Source of the DNA: Gammaproteobacteria bacterium
Lineage (GTDB): Bacteria; Pseudomonadota; Gammaproteobacteria; Ga0077536
Direction: 5' to 3'
DNA: 64,000 bases
Assembly (NCBI GenBank): GCA_016191285.1
Contig: JACPPA010000057.1
Coordinates: 977 to 64,976, forward strand
The position numbers were made by a program, and so were the translations under genes. The notes beneath the pieces are model-generated. The model saw only the letters and a list, made by a program, of their open reading frames with translations. It searched no databases and was not told the DNA's origin. Shown in pieces: positions 29,961-60,450 of this stretch (position 1 is the stretch's first letter; each line of letters begins with the position of its first letter).

Positions 29961-30037
29961 TGGCGCGCCCAGAGAGACTCGAACTCCCGACCACCTGGTT
30001 CGAAGCCAGGTACTCTATCCAACTGAGCTATGGGCGC
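29961..30037 (-). tRNA. tRNA-Arg (anticodon read as TCG)
   Basis: 77 nt: GCGCCCATAGCTCAGTTGGATAGAGTACCTGGCTTCGAACCAGGTGGTCGGGAGTTCGAGTCTCTCTGGGCGCGCCA; 7-bp acceptor stem, GTTCGAGTC T-loop, anticodon loop CTTCGAA. Confidence 0.85.
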
Positions 30038-53997: not shown

Positions 53998-55389
53998 ATG
54001 CGCTACAGCCATTCCGTTGGCGCCAGCACTTACCGCTTCGCGGATCTCAAAGCGGTGCTGGCTAAGGCGTCACCCGCGCGCTCCGGCGATTTTCTGGCCG
54101 GCGTGGCGGCCGGGAGCGCTGTCGAACGCATGGCGGCGCGTCTCTGCCTCGCCGACCTGCCGTTGTCCGTATTCTTGAACGAGACGTTGATCCCATACGA
54201 AACCGACGCCGTTACCCGACTGATCATCGATCGGCACGACCTTCAAGCCTTCACCGAAATCGCGCATTTCACGGTGGGCGATTTTCGCAATTGGTTGTTG
54301 CTGGAGGCGACTGACGAAGCGGCGCTGGCGCGAATCGCTCTCGCGGTAACCCCCGAGATGGCGGCCGCCGTGTCCAAGCTCATGCGTAATCAAGATCTCA
54401 TTCTGGTCGCGCGTAAGTGTCGCGTGATCACGCGTTTTCGAAACACCCTCGGGCTACCCGGTCGGTTGGCGGTGCGCTTACAGCCGAATCATCCGACCGA
54501 TGATGTCAAAGGCATTGCGGCGGTGATCCTCGATGGCCTTTTGTATGGTAGTGGCGACGCGGTGATCGGGATCAATCCCGCCAGCGATAGCTTGCCGGTC
54601 TTGATGGGGTTGTGGCGCATGGTCGATGACGTCATCCAGCGCTTTAACGTGCCGACCCAGTCCTGCGTGCTCACGCATGTCACTAACCAAATTCAAGCCA
54701 TCGAACGTGGCGCGCCGATCGATCTCGTGTTCCAGTCGATTGCGGGCACCGAAGCCGCCAATGCGAGTTTCGGCGTCACGTTGAAACTACTGGCCGAAGC
54801 GCGCGACGCCGCGCTGTCGCTCGGGCGTGGCACGGTGGGCGATAACGTCATGTACTTCGAAACCGGGCAGGGCAGCGCGTTGTCGGCGAACGCGAATTTT
54901 GGGATCGATCAGCAAACCTGCGAAGCACGCGCCTACGCGGTCGCGCGCGAATTCAAACCGCTGTTGGTGAATACCGTGGTCGGCTTCATTGGTCCCGAAT
55001 ATTTGTACGACGGAAAGCAGATCATTCGCGCCGGGCTTGAGGATCATTTTTGCGGCAAGTTGATGGGCGTGCCGCTGGGTTGCGATGTCTGTTACACCAA
55101 TCACGCCGAAGCCGATCAAGACGACATGGACAATCTATTAACGCTGTTGGGGGCAGCGGGTGTTACTTACATCATGGGCATCCCGGGGGCGGACGATATC
55201 ATGCTCAATTATCAGAGCACGTCGTTTCATGATGCGCTGTATCTGCGGACCGTGCTCGGGCTTAGGCACGCCCCCGAGTTCGAAGCTTGGCTTGAACACA
55301 GGCAAGTGACCGCGGGCGGCAAATTGCGCGCGTTACCGACGCAGCATGGTCTACTGCGTGCACTCAGCGATATGACACAGAACGCATGA
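53998..55389 (+). CDS. eutB: Ethanolamine ammonia-lyase large subunit
   Basis: 463 aa, EutB family sequence; stop overlaps eutC start (ATGA). Confidence 0.92.
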   Translation: MRYSHSVGASTYRFADLKAVLAKASPARSGDFLAGVAAGSAVERMAARLCLADLPLSVFLNETLIPYETDAVTRLIIDRHDLQAFTEIAHFTVGDFRNWLLLEATDEAALARIALAVTPEMAAAVSKLMRNQDLILVARKCRVITRFRNTLGLPGRLAVRLQPNHPTDDVKGIAAVILDGLLYGSGDAVIGINPASDSLPVLMGLWRMVDDVIQRFNVPTQSCVLTHVTNQIQAIERGAPIDLVFQSIAGTEAANASFGVTLKLLAEARDAALSLGRGTVGDNVMYFETGQGSALSANANFGIDQQTCEARAYAVAREFKPLLVNTVVGFIGPEYLYDGKQIIRAGLEDHFCGKLMGVPLGCDVCYTNHAEADQDDMDNLLTLLGAAGVTYIMGIPGADDIMLNYQSTSFHDALYLRTVLGLRHAPEFEAWLEHRQVTAGGKLRALPTQHGLLRALSDMTQNA

Positions 55390-56165
55390 CCCCCAAGCCG
55401 CCGGTGCCGGTCGCAATCGAAGCCAATCCGTGGGCTGAACTCAAGCAATTCACCTCGGCGCGGATCGCGCTCGGCCGGGTGGGGAGCAGCCTGCCAACGG
55501 ACGAGGTATTGCGCTTCGGACTTGCACACGCGGCGGCGCGCGATGCCGTGCATGCTCCGCTCGATTATGCGGCGCTCGGTCGCGAGTTGTCGGCCGCTGG
55601 CTTTGACTCGTACCGGGTGCACAGCCGCGCCGCGGATCGCCCAACTTATTTGCTGCGGCCCGATCTCGGGCGTGATCTGCGCGACGACAGCCGGGCGTTG
55701 CTGAGCTCGAATGCGGATAGGGAACTCGACACCGTGTTCGTGATCGCGGACGGACTTTCCGCATTCGCTATTACGCGACATGCGCTGCCGCTGCTCGTTG
55801 CGGTCCACGCACTGCTGCCTCCCACGTACGTAATGCCGCCTGTAGTGATCGTCAGTCAGGGTCGCGTCGCGATTGGAGACGCCATCGGTGAATCCCTGCG
55901 CGCGCGCAGTGTGGTGGTGTTAATTGGAGAACGGCCGGGACTGAGTTCGCCCGATAGTCTCGGCGTTTATCTCACTTACGCCCCCAAAATCGGACGTACT
56001 GACGCCGAACGCAATTGCGTTTCGAATATTCGACCCGAAGGTCTGGCGTATCCGGACGCGGCGCGTAAATTGAGCTGGCTGCTACAGACAGCGCTGCAGC
56101 TACGATTAAGCGGCATCGGACTCAAGGATCAAAGTGACCTGCTGGAATACCAGCCACACGAATGA
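55386..56165 (+). CDS. eutC: Ethanolamine ammonia-lyase small subunit
   Basis: 259 aa EutC family; translationally coupled to eutB. Confidence 0.9.
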   Translation: MTPKPPVPVAIEANPWAELKQFTSARIALGRVGSSLPTDEVLRFGLAHAAARDAVHAPLDYAALGRELSAAGFDSYRVHSRAADRPTYLLRPDLGRDLRDDSRALLSSNADRELDTVFVIADGLSAFAITRHALPLLVAVHALLPPTYVMPPVVIVSQGRVAIGDAIGESLRARSVVVLIGERPGLSSPDSLGVYLTYAPKIGRTDAERNCVSNIRPEGLAYPDAARKLSWLLQTALQLRLSGIGLKDQSDLLEYQPHE

Positions 56166-56171
56166 CTTTTT

Positions 56172-56194
56172 CCGCTCTCCCCGCGCGGGAGCGG
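56172..56194. terminator. GC-rich hairpin after eutC sharing a 16-mer (CCCCGCGCGGGAGCGG) with the hairpin at 2585-2608
   Basis: ccgctctccccgcgcgggagcgg inverted repeat. Confidence 0.35.
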
Positions 56195-56259
56195 AGCTAA
56201 CCCGGGTGGATGGATGTAGCGCGACAATAAATCGTTTAAAAATCTCTAGGGGAATATCG

Positions 56260-57810
56260 ATGAATTCAACACAGCACGGCGGCGCGGAGTTGCATGATGA
56301 CGATGTAAAAATTTTGCATGGCATGGGTTACGCCCAGGAATTACATCGCGGCATGGGCGCTTTTTCGAACTTTGCGATTTCCTTTTCGATCATTTGCATT
56401 CTGTCGGGGGGGATTAATTCATTGGCCCAAGCCACCTCTGGCGCGGGGGGCGCCGCGATTGGCATCGGGTGGCCAATCGGCTGTTTTTTCTCCTTCGTAT
56501 TCGCATTGGCCATGGCGCAAATCTCATCCGCCTATCCGACCGCAGGCGGTCTGTATCACTGGGGATCAATCCTCGGCAATCGTTTCACCGGGTGGGTGAC
56601 GGCGTGGTTTAACTTACTTGGCTTGGTGACCGTGCTCGGCGCAATTAATGTCGGTACTTATTATTTCTTCTTTGGCGCCTTCGGTCCGGCGCTCGGCATG
56701 GCGGACACGATCCCGGTGCGGATAACCGCCCTGGCGGTGTTGACCGGCATTCAGGCGTTAATCAATCACTATGGCATTGGCTTAACCGCCAAGCTGACGG
56801 ATTTTTCCGGCTATCTCATTTTCGCGACTGCGCTCGGACTCACGGTGGTGTGTCTCGCTTCCGCGCCGAGTTTTGAATTTAGTCGACTGTTCACCTTCGC
56901 CAATTATTCGGGTGAAGCCGGTGGCAATGTGTGGCCCGCGGTGTCCTCGAGCTGGGTGTTTGCGCTGGGTCTACTATTGCCGATTTATACCATCACGGGC
57001 TATGACGCCTCGGCGCACACCTCCGAAGAAACCAAAAACGCCGCGCAATCGGTGCCGCGCGGCATGGTCAGTTCGGTCATTTGGTCCACGGTGTTTGGCT
57101 ACCTCATGCTGTGCGCCTTCGTACTCATGCTGCCGAACATGGACGACGCCGCGAAACAAGGTTGGAATGTGTTCTTCTGGGGCATGGATGCACAGGTGAA
57201 TCCGACGGTGAAAGTTGTAACCTATGTGGCGATTTTTGTGTCGCAGTTTTTGTGCGGCTTAGCCACGGTCACTTCAGTATCGCGAATGATTTTTGCTTTT
57301 TCACGCGACGGTGGACTGCCCATGTCGAAGGCCCTGGCCAAAGTCTCGCCCGCTTATCGCACACCGGTTAACGCGATCTGGACGGGTTCGATCTTGGCCG
57401 TGCTGTTCGTATGGGGCTCGTCGCTGGTGTCGATCGGGGAGACTCCGGTGTATTCCATCGTTGTTTCCTGCACTGTTATTTTCATCTTCTTCTCGTTCGT
57501 CATTCCCATCACACTCGGGTTGTTTACTTACGGCACCGCAAAATGGCCAAAGATGGGACCGTGGAATATGGGGCGCGGACTGTTCTCGTTGTTCGCGCTG
57601 CTGTCCATCATCTCGATGGTGATCATTTTTATCATTGGCGTGCAGCCGCCTAATCAACTGGCATCGAATGTCACGCTGGGATTTTTGATTTTGACTGCGG
57701 TGGTCTGGTTCGGATTGGAAAATCGCCGCTTCAAAGGACCCCCGATTGGGGATGTGATCGCCAAGCGGCAAGCGGAAATTGCCGCGGCGGAAGCAGCGCT
57801 GAGTAAATAA
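56260..57810 (+). CDS. APC-family amino acid/ethanolamine permease
   Basis: ATG at 56260 (MNSTQHGG...) after aggggaa; 12-TM APC pattern; downstream of eutBC. Confidence 0.85.
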   Translation: MNSTQHGGAELHDDDVKILHGMGYAQELHRGMGAFSNFAISFSIICILSGGINSLAQATSGAGGAAIGIGWPIGCFFSFVFALAMAQISSAYPTAGGLYHWGSILGNRFTGWVTAWFNLLGLVTVLGAINVGTYYFFFGAFGPALGMADTIPVRITALAVLTGIQALINHYGIGLTAKLTDFSGYLIFATALGLTVVCLASAPSFEFSRLFTFANYSGEAGGNVWPAVSSSWVFALGLLLPIYTITGYDASAHTSEETKNAAQSVPRGMVSSVIWSTVFGYLMLCAFVLMLPNMDDAAKQGWNVFFWGMDAQVNPTVKVVTYVAIFVSQFLCGLATVTSVSRMIFAFSRDGGLPMSKALAKVSPAYRTPVNAIWTGSILAVLFVWGSSLVSIGETPVYSIVVSCTVIFIFFSFVIPITLGLFTYGTAKWPKMGPWNMGRGLFSLFALLSIISMVIIFIIGVQPPNQLASNVTLGFLILTAVVWFGLENRRFKGPPIGDVIAKRQAEIAAAEAALSK

Positions 57811-57987
57811 ATACGCATAGTTATAGTGGGCGGCGTCAGCCGATCGTGGCGCCGCCTCGCTAGACGCCGAAGTGGCGGCATACCGTCGAGCGCTTGAAAT
57901 CGCATTTCCAAAAGTGGAATGACAGCGTGGCGTAAAATCGAAATGGGTGGGTTGATAAACCGAGCCTAGGGATTAGGATACTCAGTA

Positions 57988-58746
57988 ATGAACGATTCCT
58001 TACTCGCATTAACTTCGTCGCCAATCGTCGAAGCGGTGCTTGATATCGACTGCGATATGCCACCCGCGACGAATCTTGCTGCGTTGGAACCGACGGCTAC
58101 GCGCGTGTTCGGCGATCAATATCCCACAGCCAAAACGCAAATCGCGCAAGAGACGCAAATAGAATCACGAGGCCAGGAATTTCCAAGGGTTACCACAACG
58201 CATGGCCTTGCAGCGCTGCAGTTTTTCAGTGACGACGACAAACAACTGGTCCAATTGCGCTTACAAGGCTATTCGTTCAATAGGCTTACGCCGTATTCGA
58301 GTTTAGATGATTATCTGCCTGAGATTGAGCGCACGTGGCGGCTGTTCTTGACGTTGGCTGCACCGATTAAAGTTAGCCGCATACGGCTGCGCTACATCAA
58401 CCGGCTGCTACTACCGTTAACGGAGGGTAAAGTTGGGCTGGACGAATTTTTACGTCTAGGTCCGCGGTTACCCGATGACGCGACGCTAGTGTTTTCCAGC
58501 TTCTTCAATCAGCATGTCCTGAGCGAACCGGTGACCGGCAATGTCGTCAAAGTTATCATGGCGTCCCAGCTCCCTGAGAACCACGCTTTGCCCCTGATTT
58601 TGGATATCGAGGCCGAACGGCCATGCGCGATTGAACCGAATGATTGGACGAAAATAGCACAGCGGATAGATTCATTGCGGGCACTGAAGAACCTTGTTTT
58701 TAGAAAATCCTTAACCGAACCATGCTTAAACCGATATCGACAGTAG
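57988..58746 (+). CDS. Uncharacterised protein resembling the TIGR04255 family (first gene of a low-GC three-gene cassette)
   Basis: 252 aa; IRLRYINRL motif recalled for TIGR04255-type proteins (tentative); local GC ~45-50% versus ~65% in flanking genes. Confidence 0.5.
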   Translation: MNDSLLALTSSPIVEAVLDIDCDMPPATNLAALEPTATRVFGDQYPTAKTQIAQETQIESRGQEFPRVTTTHGLAALQFFSDDDKQLVQLRLQGYSFNRLTPYSSLDDYLPEIERTWRLFLTLAAPIKVSRIRLRYINRLLLPLTEGKVGLDEFLRLGPRLPDDATLVFSSFFNQHVLSEPVTGNVVKVIMASQLPENHALPLILDIEAERPCAIEPNDWTKIAQRIDSLRALKNLVFRKSLTEPCLNRYRQ

Positions 58747-59264
58747 GCGCACAGGTTGGCTTAGCGCTGCTCTATTCGCTGGCGCGACCAGGTACGGCAA
58801 TCTCGAACGAGGCTGCTCTGGTGCAAACGGCGGCGAATCGCGCGATGGATTCGGTCGAGCGGTCGCGCGCGTTATTCGGCAACAAGGCAACGGCCATTTC
58901 GCAGGTATGGGCGCTTGCGCAAGAATGCAGCGTGGAAGATTGGGATGGTAATGGTTCGCTGCCGATTAAACCCGTTTCAGTGCATAGAGCAATCGCACTC
59001 ATTCGCGCGCTTCCGGCTGATATGCCCTTGCCTGAGTTCGCGCCAGACCCCGATGGCGCGATTTCACTTGATTGGATTCGATCGCGAAGCCGCCTGTTCT
59101 CTTTGAGCGTCGGCGATAGCGACCGGCTCGCCTATGCCTGGCTCGACGGATCAGATAGCGGGCATGGTGTCGCGCGCTTTGATGGAGAGGCGCTACCGCT
59201 CCGAGTACTGCAAGGTATCGCCTCGATAATGGAATTCAATGACGCTGCCATCGGGATTGTCTGA
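58722..59264 (+). CDS. Hypothetical protein (cassette gene 2; start uncertain, possibly the GTG near 58821)
   Basis: ORF overlaps gene 1 by 25 nt and gene 3 by 26 nt; no recognisable domain. Confidence 0.4.
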   Translation: MLKPISTVGAQVGLALLYSLARPGTAISNEAALVQTAANRAMDSVERSRALFGNKATAISQVWALAQECSVEDWDGNGSLPIKPVSVHRAIALIRALPADMPLPEFAPDPDGAISLDWIRSRSRLFSLSVGDSDRLAYAWLDGSDSGHGVARFDGEALPLRVLQGIASIMEFNDAAIGIV

Positions 59265-59649
59265 CTCCGTCGCGGACAGCGAGCCGCTAGCTCGCTTTCT
59301 AACCTCGAGCAGCCAATTCAACGTCAGCGGCGTGAAGCCTTCGGTCTTTTTGCCCAACCCGAAAAATAATCAAACGTCGGTTTTCCGCCACGGCGCAGAG
59401 CCGCGTGAAGCACTATGGCGCATTGCGCGTGAATACGCCGTCGGCGATCGACCACTACATGGCGCAGCGGTGTGCTTGGCGGGAGATGTTCGCGCCGTGC
59501 TCCTCGAGGTAAACCCAAAAGAACCGCCGCCCGGTCACGCAAATATCGAAAACTGGTCTGTAAATAAAAACGACCCTGAGCTGACGAAGGCGACTCAGAA
59601 GGAGCTGGCGACGAAGATTGCCCAACGCGCGACTCTGGTGCAATTTTAG
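59239..59649 (+). CDS. Hypothetical protein (cassette gene 3)
   Basis: 136-aa ORF; no recognisable domain; low GC like genes 1 and 2. Confidence 0.4.
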   Translation: MTLPSGLSDSVADSEPLARFLTSSSQFNVSGVKPSVFLPNPKNNQTSVFRHGAEPREALWRIAREYAVGDRPLHGAAVCLAGDVRAVLLEVNPKEPPPGHANIENWSVNKNDPELTKATQKELATKIAQRATLVQF

Positions 59650-59670: not shown

Positions 59671-60450
59671 TCAGCCGATAGTGGCGCCGCCATCGACGAT
59701 GAAATTCTGTCCGGTGGTGAAGCTGCTCGCACGCGAGGCAAGATAGACCGCGATGCCGGCGACTTCCTCCGGCTCGCCGATTCGGCGCAGGGGATCGTGC
59801 TCGGTGCGGCGTGCGAGTGTCTCGGGGTTCTCCCATAGCGCGCGTGCAAAGTCGGTGCGAATGAGGCCGGGCGAAATGGCATTAACGCGAATGTTGTGCG
59901 GTCCGTTCTCGACGGCGAGGTTGCGCACCAGCTGCAGATCGGCGGCTTTGGAGATGCAGTACGCGCCGAGCGTGCGGTGACCGCGCAGACCGCCGATGGA
60001 GGACACGATGATGATGGTACCGTCGCGCCGTTCGATCATCTCCGGCAGCACCAGCTGACACAGCCAGTGATTGGCGAGGATGTTGATGTCGAGAATTTTC
60101 TCGAACGCGGAATCCGGCAGATCGCGCATGGGGCCGTACGCAGGATTGACTGCGGCATTGCAGATCAAAATGTCGATACGCCCGAGCTGTGCTTGAGTTT
60201 CGCGAACCAGGCGCGCTAATTCCTCCCGCTGTCCGATATGCGCGGGAATGGCGATCGCGCGACCGGCCTGACCGGCGAGTTCCGCGTTGATGGTGGCGGC
60301 GACATCGGCACACACGTCGCCCTTGCGACTTGAGATTACAACCGTCGCGCCGTGGCGCGCCATTTCTTCGGCGATGGCGCGGCCGATGCCTTTGCTCGAA
60401 CCGGTGATCAACGCCGTTTTGCCAGTGAGATCGAATAAGGTACTAGCCAT
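59671..60450 (-). CDS. SDR family oxidoreductase
   Basis: TGSSKGIG glycine motif; NAA; YxxxK. Confidence 0.9.
   Translation of the reverse strand: MASTLFDLTGKTALITGSSKGIGRAIAEEMARHGATVVISSRKGDVCADVAATINAELAGQAGRAIAIPAHIGQREELARLVRETQAQLGRIDILICNAAVNPAYGPMRDLPDSAFEKILDINILANHWLCQLVLPEMIERRDGTIIIVSSIGGLRGHRTLGAYCISKAADLQLVRNLAVENGPHNIRVNAISPGLIRTDFARALWENPETLARRTEHDPLRRIGEPEEVAGIAVYLASRASSFTTGQNFIVDGGATIG

Follow-up and report, generated by a model that had tools for sequence, protein, structure and literature searches.

A 64,000-nucleotide stretch of DNA (hereafter, the window) from an 82.7 kb contig of a gammaproteobacterial metagenome-assembled genome contains, at positions 57,988 to 59,649, three overlapping genes, here termed g1, g2 and g3. 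Examination of this block revealed it to belong to an undescribed, widespread family of gene cassettes and to be a discrete, horizontally mobile insertion. As to function, we consider the chances to be about even that the block is a mobile tripartite toxin-antitoxin or abortive-infection module, with g3 being a toxin of the ADP-ribosyltransferase (ART) fold, g2 its neutralizer and the hub of the complex, and g1 an accessory sensor or regulator. An earlier reading of the same sequence (the original prediction) had proposed a horizontally acquired defense or toxin-antitoxin cassette; that interpretation is partly supported by what is presented here, with part of its reasoning having been wrong.

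Conservation of the gene trio

Homologues of conserved length, mostly metagenomic in origin, were found for each of the three proteins (g1: 1,234; g2: 461; g3: 196). A set of loci seeded with g3, comprising 80 loci from GTDB species representatives and five from metagenome contigs, spans Verrucomicrobiota, Alpha-, Beta- and Gammaproteobacteria, Latescibacterota, Nitrospirota, Chloroflexota, Acidobacteriota, Planctomycetota, Myxococcota, Gemmatimonadota, Hydrogenedentota and Binatia. In 76 of these 85 loci, g1, g2 and g3 lie in that order on one strand, with most of the remainder being cut by contig ends. Independent seeding with a divergent alignment of TIGR04255 proteins, the first member of which is 36% identical to g1, yielded nearly 600 confirmed metagenome matches among the matches listed, with 80 loci being kept. 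All three genes were present in 61 of these loci, and g1 and g2 in a further 15, where g3 had mostly been lost to contig ends. Overall, the trio was found with the same order, strand and overlap frames in approximately 160 loci from at least 12 phyla, and in the subfamily that includes the window's copy, g1 is always upstream of g2. The original prediction had held that it would fall were the three genes not conserved together elsewhere. Instead, the trio is kept as a unit, and genes 2 and 3 each have same-length homologues numbering in the hundreds.

In the window, the three co-directional open reading frames (ORFs) overlap by 25 nucleotides (g1/g2) and 26 nucleotides (g2/g3), as first described, and the NCBI annotation of the contig lists the same three proteins with the same boundaries (MBI2803294-96). 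Across 113 loci, the g1/g2 overlap measures 19-34 nucleotides and has a length of 3n+1, and the g2/g3 overlap measures 23-35 nucleotides and has a length of 3n+2, with a single exception in each case. These overlaps are not artifacts of selecting the longest ORF, as the N-termini are kept in homologues. Pairwise distance matrices for the three proteins are likewise correlated (g1-g2, r = 0.85; g2-g3, r = 0.66; g1-g3, r = 0.62), values reached by none of 500 Mantel permutations.

Mobility of the cassette

The block is bracketed by a 21-nucleotide direct repeat, the two copies of which (Table 1) are identical at 20 of 21 positions. No other occurrence of the repeat was found in the window, with none being expected from shuffled sequences. 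The right copy lies at the end of a short-chain dehydrogenase/reductase (SDR) gene, and the left copy would encode the same peptide as does that gene end. As the repeat thus duplicates the end of the SDR gene, some 1.8 kb, corresponding to a 131-nucleotide leader, the trio and 21 nucleotides, were inserted at this point, with duplication of the target. Flanking duplications, in these cases of roughly 45-110 nucleotides, were also detected at six other loci (L054, L133, L017, L068, L161 and L095; loci are designated by L and a number throughout). The duplicated sequences of these six loci are mutually unrelated, corresponding among other things to gene ends, terminators and the start of a gene, and the boundaries of the inserts vary, lying 38-128 nucleotides before g1 and 8-65 nucleotides after g3. 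The earlier proposal that the genes were acquired as a unit is directly supported by such duplications, in the window and in six other genomes.

No recombinase was found within the 1.8-kb insert. Duplications of 21-110 nucleotides are present, yet the defined ends and dedicated transposase or integrase of a transposon or integrative element are not. The sole RNA gene found in the window, tRNA-Arg(TCG) at positions 29961-30037, is distant from the cassette, such that insertion did not take place at a tRNA gene. To our knowledge, no described mechanism matches the movement of a small cassette that leaves target duplications and has variable ends.

In terms of base composition, the original prediction had assigned the block a guanine-cytosine (GC) content of approximately 40-50%, as compared to approximately 65% in its flanks. 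These values were not reproduced. The GC content of the block is 54.9% (g1, 51.0%; g2, 57.8%; g3, 57.2%), as compared to 58.8% for the window, corresponding to the 9th percentile of equal-sized segments, while that of the upstream permease gene is 54.4% and that of the SDR gene 61.9%. Values as low as 40% were encountered only in single 100-nucleotide segments. GC content at third codon positions is 0.56-0.63 in the block and 0.66-0.74 in neighboring genes. Across the family, 66 of 72 loci have a trio of lower GC content than the flanking DNA, with the mean difference being 4.6 points. Lower GC content is, therefore, a family trait of the trio, meaning that the direction of the original claim was correct and its magnitude overstated.

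Predicted folds of g2 and g3

Neither g2 nor g3 matched any Pfam or NCBIfam family, in agreement with the original description of both as being without a recognizable domain, and sequence-profile searches of the PDB returned nothing relevant for either protein. No PHROGs match was obtained for any of the three proteins, and a search of PADLOC v2.0.0 yielded no match for g1 or g3 and a weak partial match of g2 to the candidate PDC-M32A (E 8e-4, residues 75-122).

The predicted fold of g3 bears likeness to those of OspC3/CopC, Tne2, CARDS, DarT, TreX/TreTu and the RES toxins, as well as toxins of the diphtheria, pertussis and cholera types. The predicted structure also resembles Tse2 (19% identity over 91 residues), AvrPphF ORF2 and TreTu. 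An ART fold for g3 is moderately supported, and no more than this because a Foldseek search of the PDB with the g3 model returned nothing significant and no sequence model of an ART family was matched. Specifically, no ART-type Pfam hit was obtained among 32 g3 family members at E<=10, and by sequence g3 belongs to no described ART family (ART, RES, DarT/DUF4433, PTS_2-RNA, Tse2 and others). Invariant residues of g3 include R19 in strand 1, T46-S47 in strand 2, and E95-PPP-R99-H100, which runs into strand 5. R19, T46-S47 and E95/H100 are candidate active-site residues, their order following that of ART catalytic motifs (R-S-E, H-Y-E or H-H-h).

The model of g2 (predicted local distance difference test score of 80) contains a confidently predicted C-terminal alpha+beta domain and a helical N-terminal half that is poorly modeled, with the first 50 residues being poorly defined. 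In the predicted structure, the C-terminal domain resembles TriTu, AvrPphF ORF1 and PsiB. TriTu is the immunity protein of an ART toxin, and AvrPphF ORF1 is the chaperone of an ART-fold effector, itself the second-best structural match of g3. As such, g2 probably adopts an alpha+beta fold like that of secretion chaperones and immunity proteins. The protein is acidic (median isoelectric point of 5.1), with g3 being near neutral to basic.

Gene loss and variant cassettes

In the loci examined, g2 is never missing where g1 or g3 is present. Where sequence is available, g3 is never seen without g2, although loss of g3 with retention of g2 does occur. Thus, g3 is absent from L120 and L123 and frameshifted in L158, while in L160 a deletion has taken out most of g3 together with the beginning of a UvrD-type helicase gene, leaving g1 and g2 intact; the resulting ORF (positions 1622-2203) opens with the g3 N-terminus (MATLPSGLPD, within the first dozen codons) and passes into the central part of the helicase, with its VIVDEAQD motif. 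In five loci, it is g1 that is absent, with g2 and g3 remaining. In one of these, L015, a 325-residue Zeta_toxin/AAA_33 protein (L015:4806-5783) is encoded directly upstream of g2-g3, with its gene itself being preceded by a type I methylase-specificity fusion. Constant retention of g2 together with dispensability of g1 and g3 is the pattern expected were g2 an antidote or hub, and the gene losses observed fit such a role as antidote hub.

Other variants were noted. In L143 (positions 2612-2995), g3 is followed by a further, partial g2 (residues 47-166, 49% identity), so that the cassette reads g1-g2-g3-g2'. In five Latescibacterota and Gemmatimonadota loci (L008, L019, L030, L014 and L021), the cassette occupies the same housekeeping site, between genes for an FG-GAP protein and a SurA-like protein. 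In L008, L019 and L030, an unrelated 103-residue ORF replaces g1, and g2 is more divergent there than in L014 and L021. Apparent g1-g2 fusions (424 residues in L001; also in L084) were discarded as evidence of interaction, since tblastn revealed these to be frameshifted g1 genes.

g1 and the TIGR04255 family

The g1 protein matched the NCBIfam model TIGR04255 with a score of 105.4 bits (cut-off 30) over residues 8-249 of 252, in agreement with the name assigned by NCBI, and contains the LRYIN motif, both as originally noted. Judging from its sequence, g1 is thus a genuine member of this family, which comprises 5,844 representatives at 50% clustering. Many polar residues of g1 are invariant. 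No relative of g1 was found in Pfam, the PDB (profile search), PADLOC or PHROGs, and neither TIGR04255 nor its InterPro names are mentioned in the full-text literature searched or in the NetFlax supplements.

A relation of g1 to SecB-like chaperones was considered and is not supported, the likeness being limited to a local motif (NRLxPY, as compared to NILFPY in SecB). No SecB Pfam hit was obtained for g1 or 20 diverse relatives at E<=10, and hhalign comparison of the g1 profile with Escherichia coli SecB gave a probability of 0.08%. Internal duplication of g1 was similarly rejected (hhalign of the N- and C-terminal halves, probability 0.4%), as was a match of a diverse g1 profile to the PDB entry 9hnh_A (E 5e-6), a 173-residue repeat protein with which a short repeated helical motif is spuriously shared.

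More distant TIGR04255 genes (23-30% identity) found on plasmids of isolates head short overlapping operons (L167, L171, L169, L170, L168 and L086). On the Vibrio parahaemolyticus plasmid CP063527 (L167:158-2105), TIGR04255 is followed by a 179-residue protein and then by an annotated zeta toxin. In Acinetobacter, the partners are a helix-turn-helix (HTH) protein and then a 273-residue protein, in Rhodococcus an HTH regulator, in Methylocystis proteins of 70 and 192 residues, with an abortive-infection (Abi) gene adjoining, in Thermus a 147-residue protein, with VapBC, a methylase and cas6 adjoining, and in Crinalium proteins of 182 and then 171 residues. No homology between these partners and g2 or g3 was detectable. 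TIGR04255 thus seems to be the fixed element of these operons, to which exchangeable partners, among them at least one recognized toxin, are joined.

Genomic context of the trio

A restriction-modification (R-M) gene lies directly upstream of the trio, on the same strand, in at least 22 of approximately 83 distinct g3-seeded loci. The types seen include type III Mod (PADLOC MTase_III, 1,451 bits), type IIG, type I methylase-specificity fusions and a DrmMI-like giant. In 15 loci, a UvrD/GajB-like helicase is encoded directly downstream of the trio. Indeed, an island with the same-strand order Res-Mod-g1-g2-g3-UvrD recurs in several phyla (L080:2836-12524; also L003, L006, L016, L038, L043, L066 and L067), in which a ResIII-type helicase is encoded upstream of the type III methyltransferase and the UvrD/GajB-like helicase is of roughly 700 residues, including an N-terminal extension of approximately 230 residues. 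This island may represent a larger composite system. Recurrent placement beside defense genes is accordingly seen for the family, although not for the copy in the window.

In the closest relative of the cassette (L172; 67-75% protein identity), the order is HsdR, a 127-residue ORF, the trio, a 350-residue protein beginning 31 nucleotides past g3, and an MNT-HEPN pair. The 350-residue protein (L172:5439-6491; also in L173, L174 and L175) is a full-length DarG homologue, containing both the macrodomain and the DarT-binding C-terminal domain. When compared to solved DarG structures, these gave E values of 1.7e-52 for the macrodomain and 2e-30 for the C-terminal domain (the latter against the DarG chain in the DarTG complex of Mycobacterium tuberculosis). 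The contigs of the closest relative contain no DarT gene. Such adjacency to DarG was seen in two lineages only, with a related gene at L031:1-906, and is absent from the window. A homologue of the DarG hydrolase next to g3 offers independent contextual support for ADP-ribosylation by g3 and hints at DNA being its target. The HsdR encoded upstream of the trio in the same relative (L172:1-3207) also has a Peptidase_S24 (LexA-like) Pfam hit, which is unusual for a restriction subunit.

Comparison with known systems

In their logic, CmdTAC (PD-T4-9), a toxin-antitoxin-chaperone anti-phage system (PMC11618068), and DarTG are the nearest known analogues, although the trio belongs to neither, as by sequence it shows no SecB-like chaperone, no DarT domain and no strong PADLOC match. 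In CmdTAC, three small genes are likewise transcribed together, and an ADP-ribosyltransferase toxin is kept inactive by an antitoxin and a third protein, roles that for the present trio are predicted. CmdTAC thus illustrates how infection could be sensed by a third component, leading to release of the toxin, and is the obvious model in this respect. The two nonetheless differ. None of the three proteins matched a named PADLOC system model, a comparison limited by the fact that the 2023 library was not checked for a CmdTAC/PD-T4-9 model. The third component here is a TIGR04255 protein, with no SecB-like chaperone being apparent by sequence (Pfam, hhalign); g2 is predicted to have a folded chaperone-like domain, whereas the CmdTAC antitoxin is short and helical with a disordered tail; and g1 can be lost while g2 and g3 persist, which would not be expected of an essential chaperone.

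In DarTG, the single-stranded DNA ADP-ribosyltransferase DarT is countered by DarG, a macrodomain antitoxin (PMC11543638, PMC11825919). Here too, an ART-fold toxin, possibly with a nucleic-acid target, would be encoded in a small operon and, in the closest relative, the DarG homologue directly follows g3, where darT normally precedes darG. However, the regular partner, g2, is neither a macrodomain nor a NADAR protein, and no DUF4433, Macro or NADAR hit was obtained in g1-g3. Xre-RES, MbcTA and ParST, in which RES/ART-like toxins that degrade NAD+ or ADP-ribosylate are paired with Xre/DUF2384 antitoxins, differ in that no RES Pfam match was found in the cassette, g2 has no Xre/HTH or DUF2384 domain, and an additional first gene is conserved. 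At the level of predicted fold, the best match for g2 and g3 together appears to be offered by Tse2-Tsi2, TreTu-TriTu and AvrPphF ORF2-ORF1. Yet, unlike such polymorphic ART toxin pairs, the cassette includes no delivery domain or secretion-system link and is a three-gene mobile unit with TIGR04255.

PrrC, together with EcoprrI, is an example of a suicide effector embedded in an R-M locus. In about a quarter of loci, the trio lies directly downstream of co-oriented R-M genes, which is reminiscent of this arrangement and suggests a back-up effector coupled to restriction-modification. A likeness to the three-gene omega-epsilon-zeta system is also seen, given that a zeta toxin is encoded last in the Vibrio TIGR04255 operon and that g1 is replaced in L015 by a protein with a zeta domain. 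Nevertheless, PrrC/RloC, omega and epsilon share no homology with the cassette proteins, and most copies of the trio, including that of the window, stand alone.

A proposed function and its alternatives

In the proposed module, g3 would be a minimal NAD+-dependent toxin of the ART fold, the target of which would most likely be nucleic acid, with DNA being favored. Through its chaperone/immunity-like C-terminal domain, g2 would bind g3 and hold it inactive, thereby serving as obligatory hub, and g1 would act through g2, either as sensor of infection or stress or as regulator or stabilizer. One promoter and conserved long overlaps would lead to the three proteins being produced in fixed proportions. 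A trigger that removes or sequesters g2 would then free g3, resulting in arrest of the cell or the invader. The g2-g3 pair shows the gene arrangement of type II toxin-antitoxin systems, with adjacent genes, the presumed neutralizer upstream and the presumed toxin never alone.

Several observations weigh against this proposal. Most loci, including that of the window, lie outside recognizable defense islands, and no defense genes were seen near the window's copy. The trio was not found in the viral contigs, isolate phage or plasmid collections searched, and no cultured host for the module is known, it having been seen only in uncultured genomes and metagenomes. Assigning g1 an accessory, sensor or regulatory part is a guess, and the uncertainty of its role counts against the scheme as a whole; on some plasmids TIGR04255 has a single partner, such that g1 could itself be an effector, and co-evolution is tighter between g1 and g2 than between g3 and g2. 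A DNA-binding domain, present in most type II antitoxins, is lacking in g2. The candidate catalytic residues of g3 were placed by sequence order, and the g3 of the window contains glycine at position 99, where all 31 other aligned members contain arginine, so that this copy may be weakened. As for the original defense or toxin-antitoxin reading, the moderately supported ART fold of g3, the presence of R-M and UvrD genes beside the trio in about a quarter of loci, the DarG homologue in the closest relative and the lack of a strong PADLOC match speak in its favor, whereas the GC values on which it drew were wrong and the window's copy lies among metabolic genes; toxicity, neutralization and phage defense are functions that we infer.

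That g1 is instead the main effector or toxin, with g2 as its antitoxin, in the reversed, toxin-then-antitoxin order, and g3 as a second effector or modulator added in this subfamily, is considered unlikely. Such an assignment draws on the constancy of TIGR04255 across otherwise unrelated small operons, some of which (in Rhodococcus, Acinetobacter and Thermus) resemble two-gene pairs, the partner being an HTH protein or a 'transcriptional regulator', on g1 and g2 being the most tightly co-evolving pair, on intact g1-g2 pairs outlasting the loss of g3, and on the many invariant polar residues of g1, which are enzyme-like. Yet the five loci with g2-g3 and no g1 point to g2 being kept for the sake of g3 as well, g1 seems at the sequence level to be unlike any toxin family or solved structure, and the recognized zeta toxin of the Vibrio operon occupies the third position, like g3 here. 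We deem it quite unlikely, moreover, that the trio is a non-conflict module for nucleic-acid modification or repair, in which g3 would be a Tpt1/KptA-like NAD+-dependent phosphotransferase or a reversible DNA/RNA ADP-ribosylase working with helicases and R-M enzymes, with the substrate being recognized by g1 and g2. Sporadic distribution in at least 12 phyla, GC content below that of the host and target duplications are traits of selfish or defense elements rather than of housekeeping repair genes, g3 lacks the N-terminal RNA-binding domain of Tpt1, and the gene-loss pattern fits dependency on an antidote.

The unique R99G replacement in g3, beside the invariant H100, the seven deviations of g1 from columns with >=90% conservation, a number toward the upper limit for the family, and the isolation of the window's copy among metabolic genes could together denote a decaying, non-functional relic, regardless of what the family does elsewhere. 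This is held to be improbable, given that the three ORFs are intact and full-length, that their starts and overlaps as well as the promoter hexamers are conserved, and that the numbers of deviations in g2 and g3 fall within the family range. Finally, despite the resemblance to Tse2-Tsi2 or TreTu-TriTu, it would be surprising were g3-g2 a polymorphic toxin-immunity pair used in competition between bacteria. The g3 protein is just 136 residues long and lacks any domain for delivery, whether PAAR, Rhs, N-terminal trafficking or other, genes for secretion systems are not a recurring feature of the approximately 160 neighborhoods, and a neutralizer-then-toxin order with translational overlap typifies intracellular toxin-antitoxin modules.

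Layout of the block and its surroundings

The features of the block and the adjacent genes are listed in Table 1. A promoter scan of the leader identified a promoter-like TTGATA and TAGGAT, separated by 16 nucleotides (57952-57979), with the second hexamer stopping 8 nucleotides before the g1 ATG. The two hexamers (TTGATAAA ... TAGGGATTAGGAT) are identical in the leader of the closest relative, the remainder of which has diverged. With only 8 nucleotides between the second hexamer and the ATG, transcription of g1 may yield an mRNA that is leaderless or nearly so; another possibility is that the conserved TAGGGATTAGGAT serves as a ribosome-binding region. A terminator-like hairpin within the g2 coding region (59038-59061; 8 pairs, of which 6 are G-C, and a T-rich tail) is probably a chance match. 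The flanks of the cassette are metabolic, with EutB, EutC and an amino-acid permease being encoded upstream and the SDR, a Zn-peptidase and a Vgb-lyase-like protein downstream.

Table 1. Positions of the cassette components and adjoining genes in the window.
Feature	Position	Strand	Remarks
eutB-eutC-amino-acid-permease operon	53998-57810		Directly upstream of the cassette
Left direct repeat copy (TCAGCCGATCGTGGCGCCGCC)	57836-57856	+	Relic of the SDR 3'-end; 25 nucleotides past the permease stop; pairs with 59671-59691
Leader, 131 nucleotides, with its own promoter-like site	57857-57987	+	Promoter scan
g1, TIGR04255 family protein, 252 residues	57988-58746	+	NCBIfam TIGR04255 match
g2, acidic protein, 180 residues, proposed neutralizer (antitoxin/immunity) and complex hub	58722-59264	+	
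g3, 136 residues, predicted ADP-ribosyltransferase-superfamily fold, proposed toxin/effector	59239-59649	+	
Right direct repeat copy	59671-59691	+	Final six codons and stop (GGATIG*) of the convergent SDR gene
SDR gene, convergent with the block	59671-60450	-	

Implications

A broader proposition is advanced tentatively, its truth being rather doubtful, namely, that operons led by TIGR04255 comprise a large unrecognized class of modular conflict systems. TIGR04255 would be their common sensor or regulator, or else a new type of effector, coupled via the middle hub to interchangeable toxins (a minimal DNA/RNA ADP-ribosyltransferase here, a zeta kinase in Vibrio), and the trio would spread between phyla independently of an integrase, leaving target duplications of 21-110 bp with variable insert ends.

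The module is abundant in environmental bacteria, and its absence from the isolate phage and plasmid collections searched may explain why screens in model organisms have not reported it. Its repeated occurrence as an insertion within R-M operons, the UvrD-like helicase that accompanies it and the DarG homologue found in one lineage lead to the hypotheses that nucleic-acid ADP-ribosylation backs up restriction and that DarG reverses the modification. The target duplications with variable ends point, in turn, to a way of moving small defense cassettes. Should the function proposed here prove true, the cassette would represent a minimal ADP-ribosyltransferase family and a tripartite architecture that are both new to toxin-antitoxin and anti-phage biology, and would provide a first functional handle on TIGR04255, a family with thousands of members.

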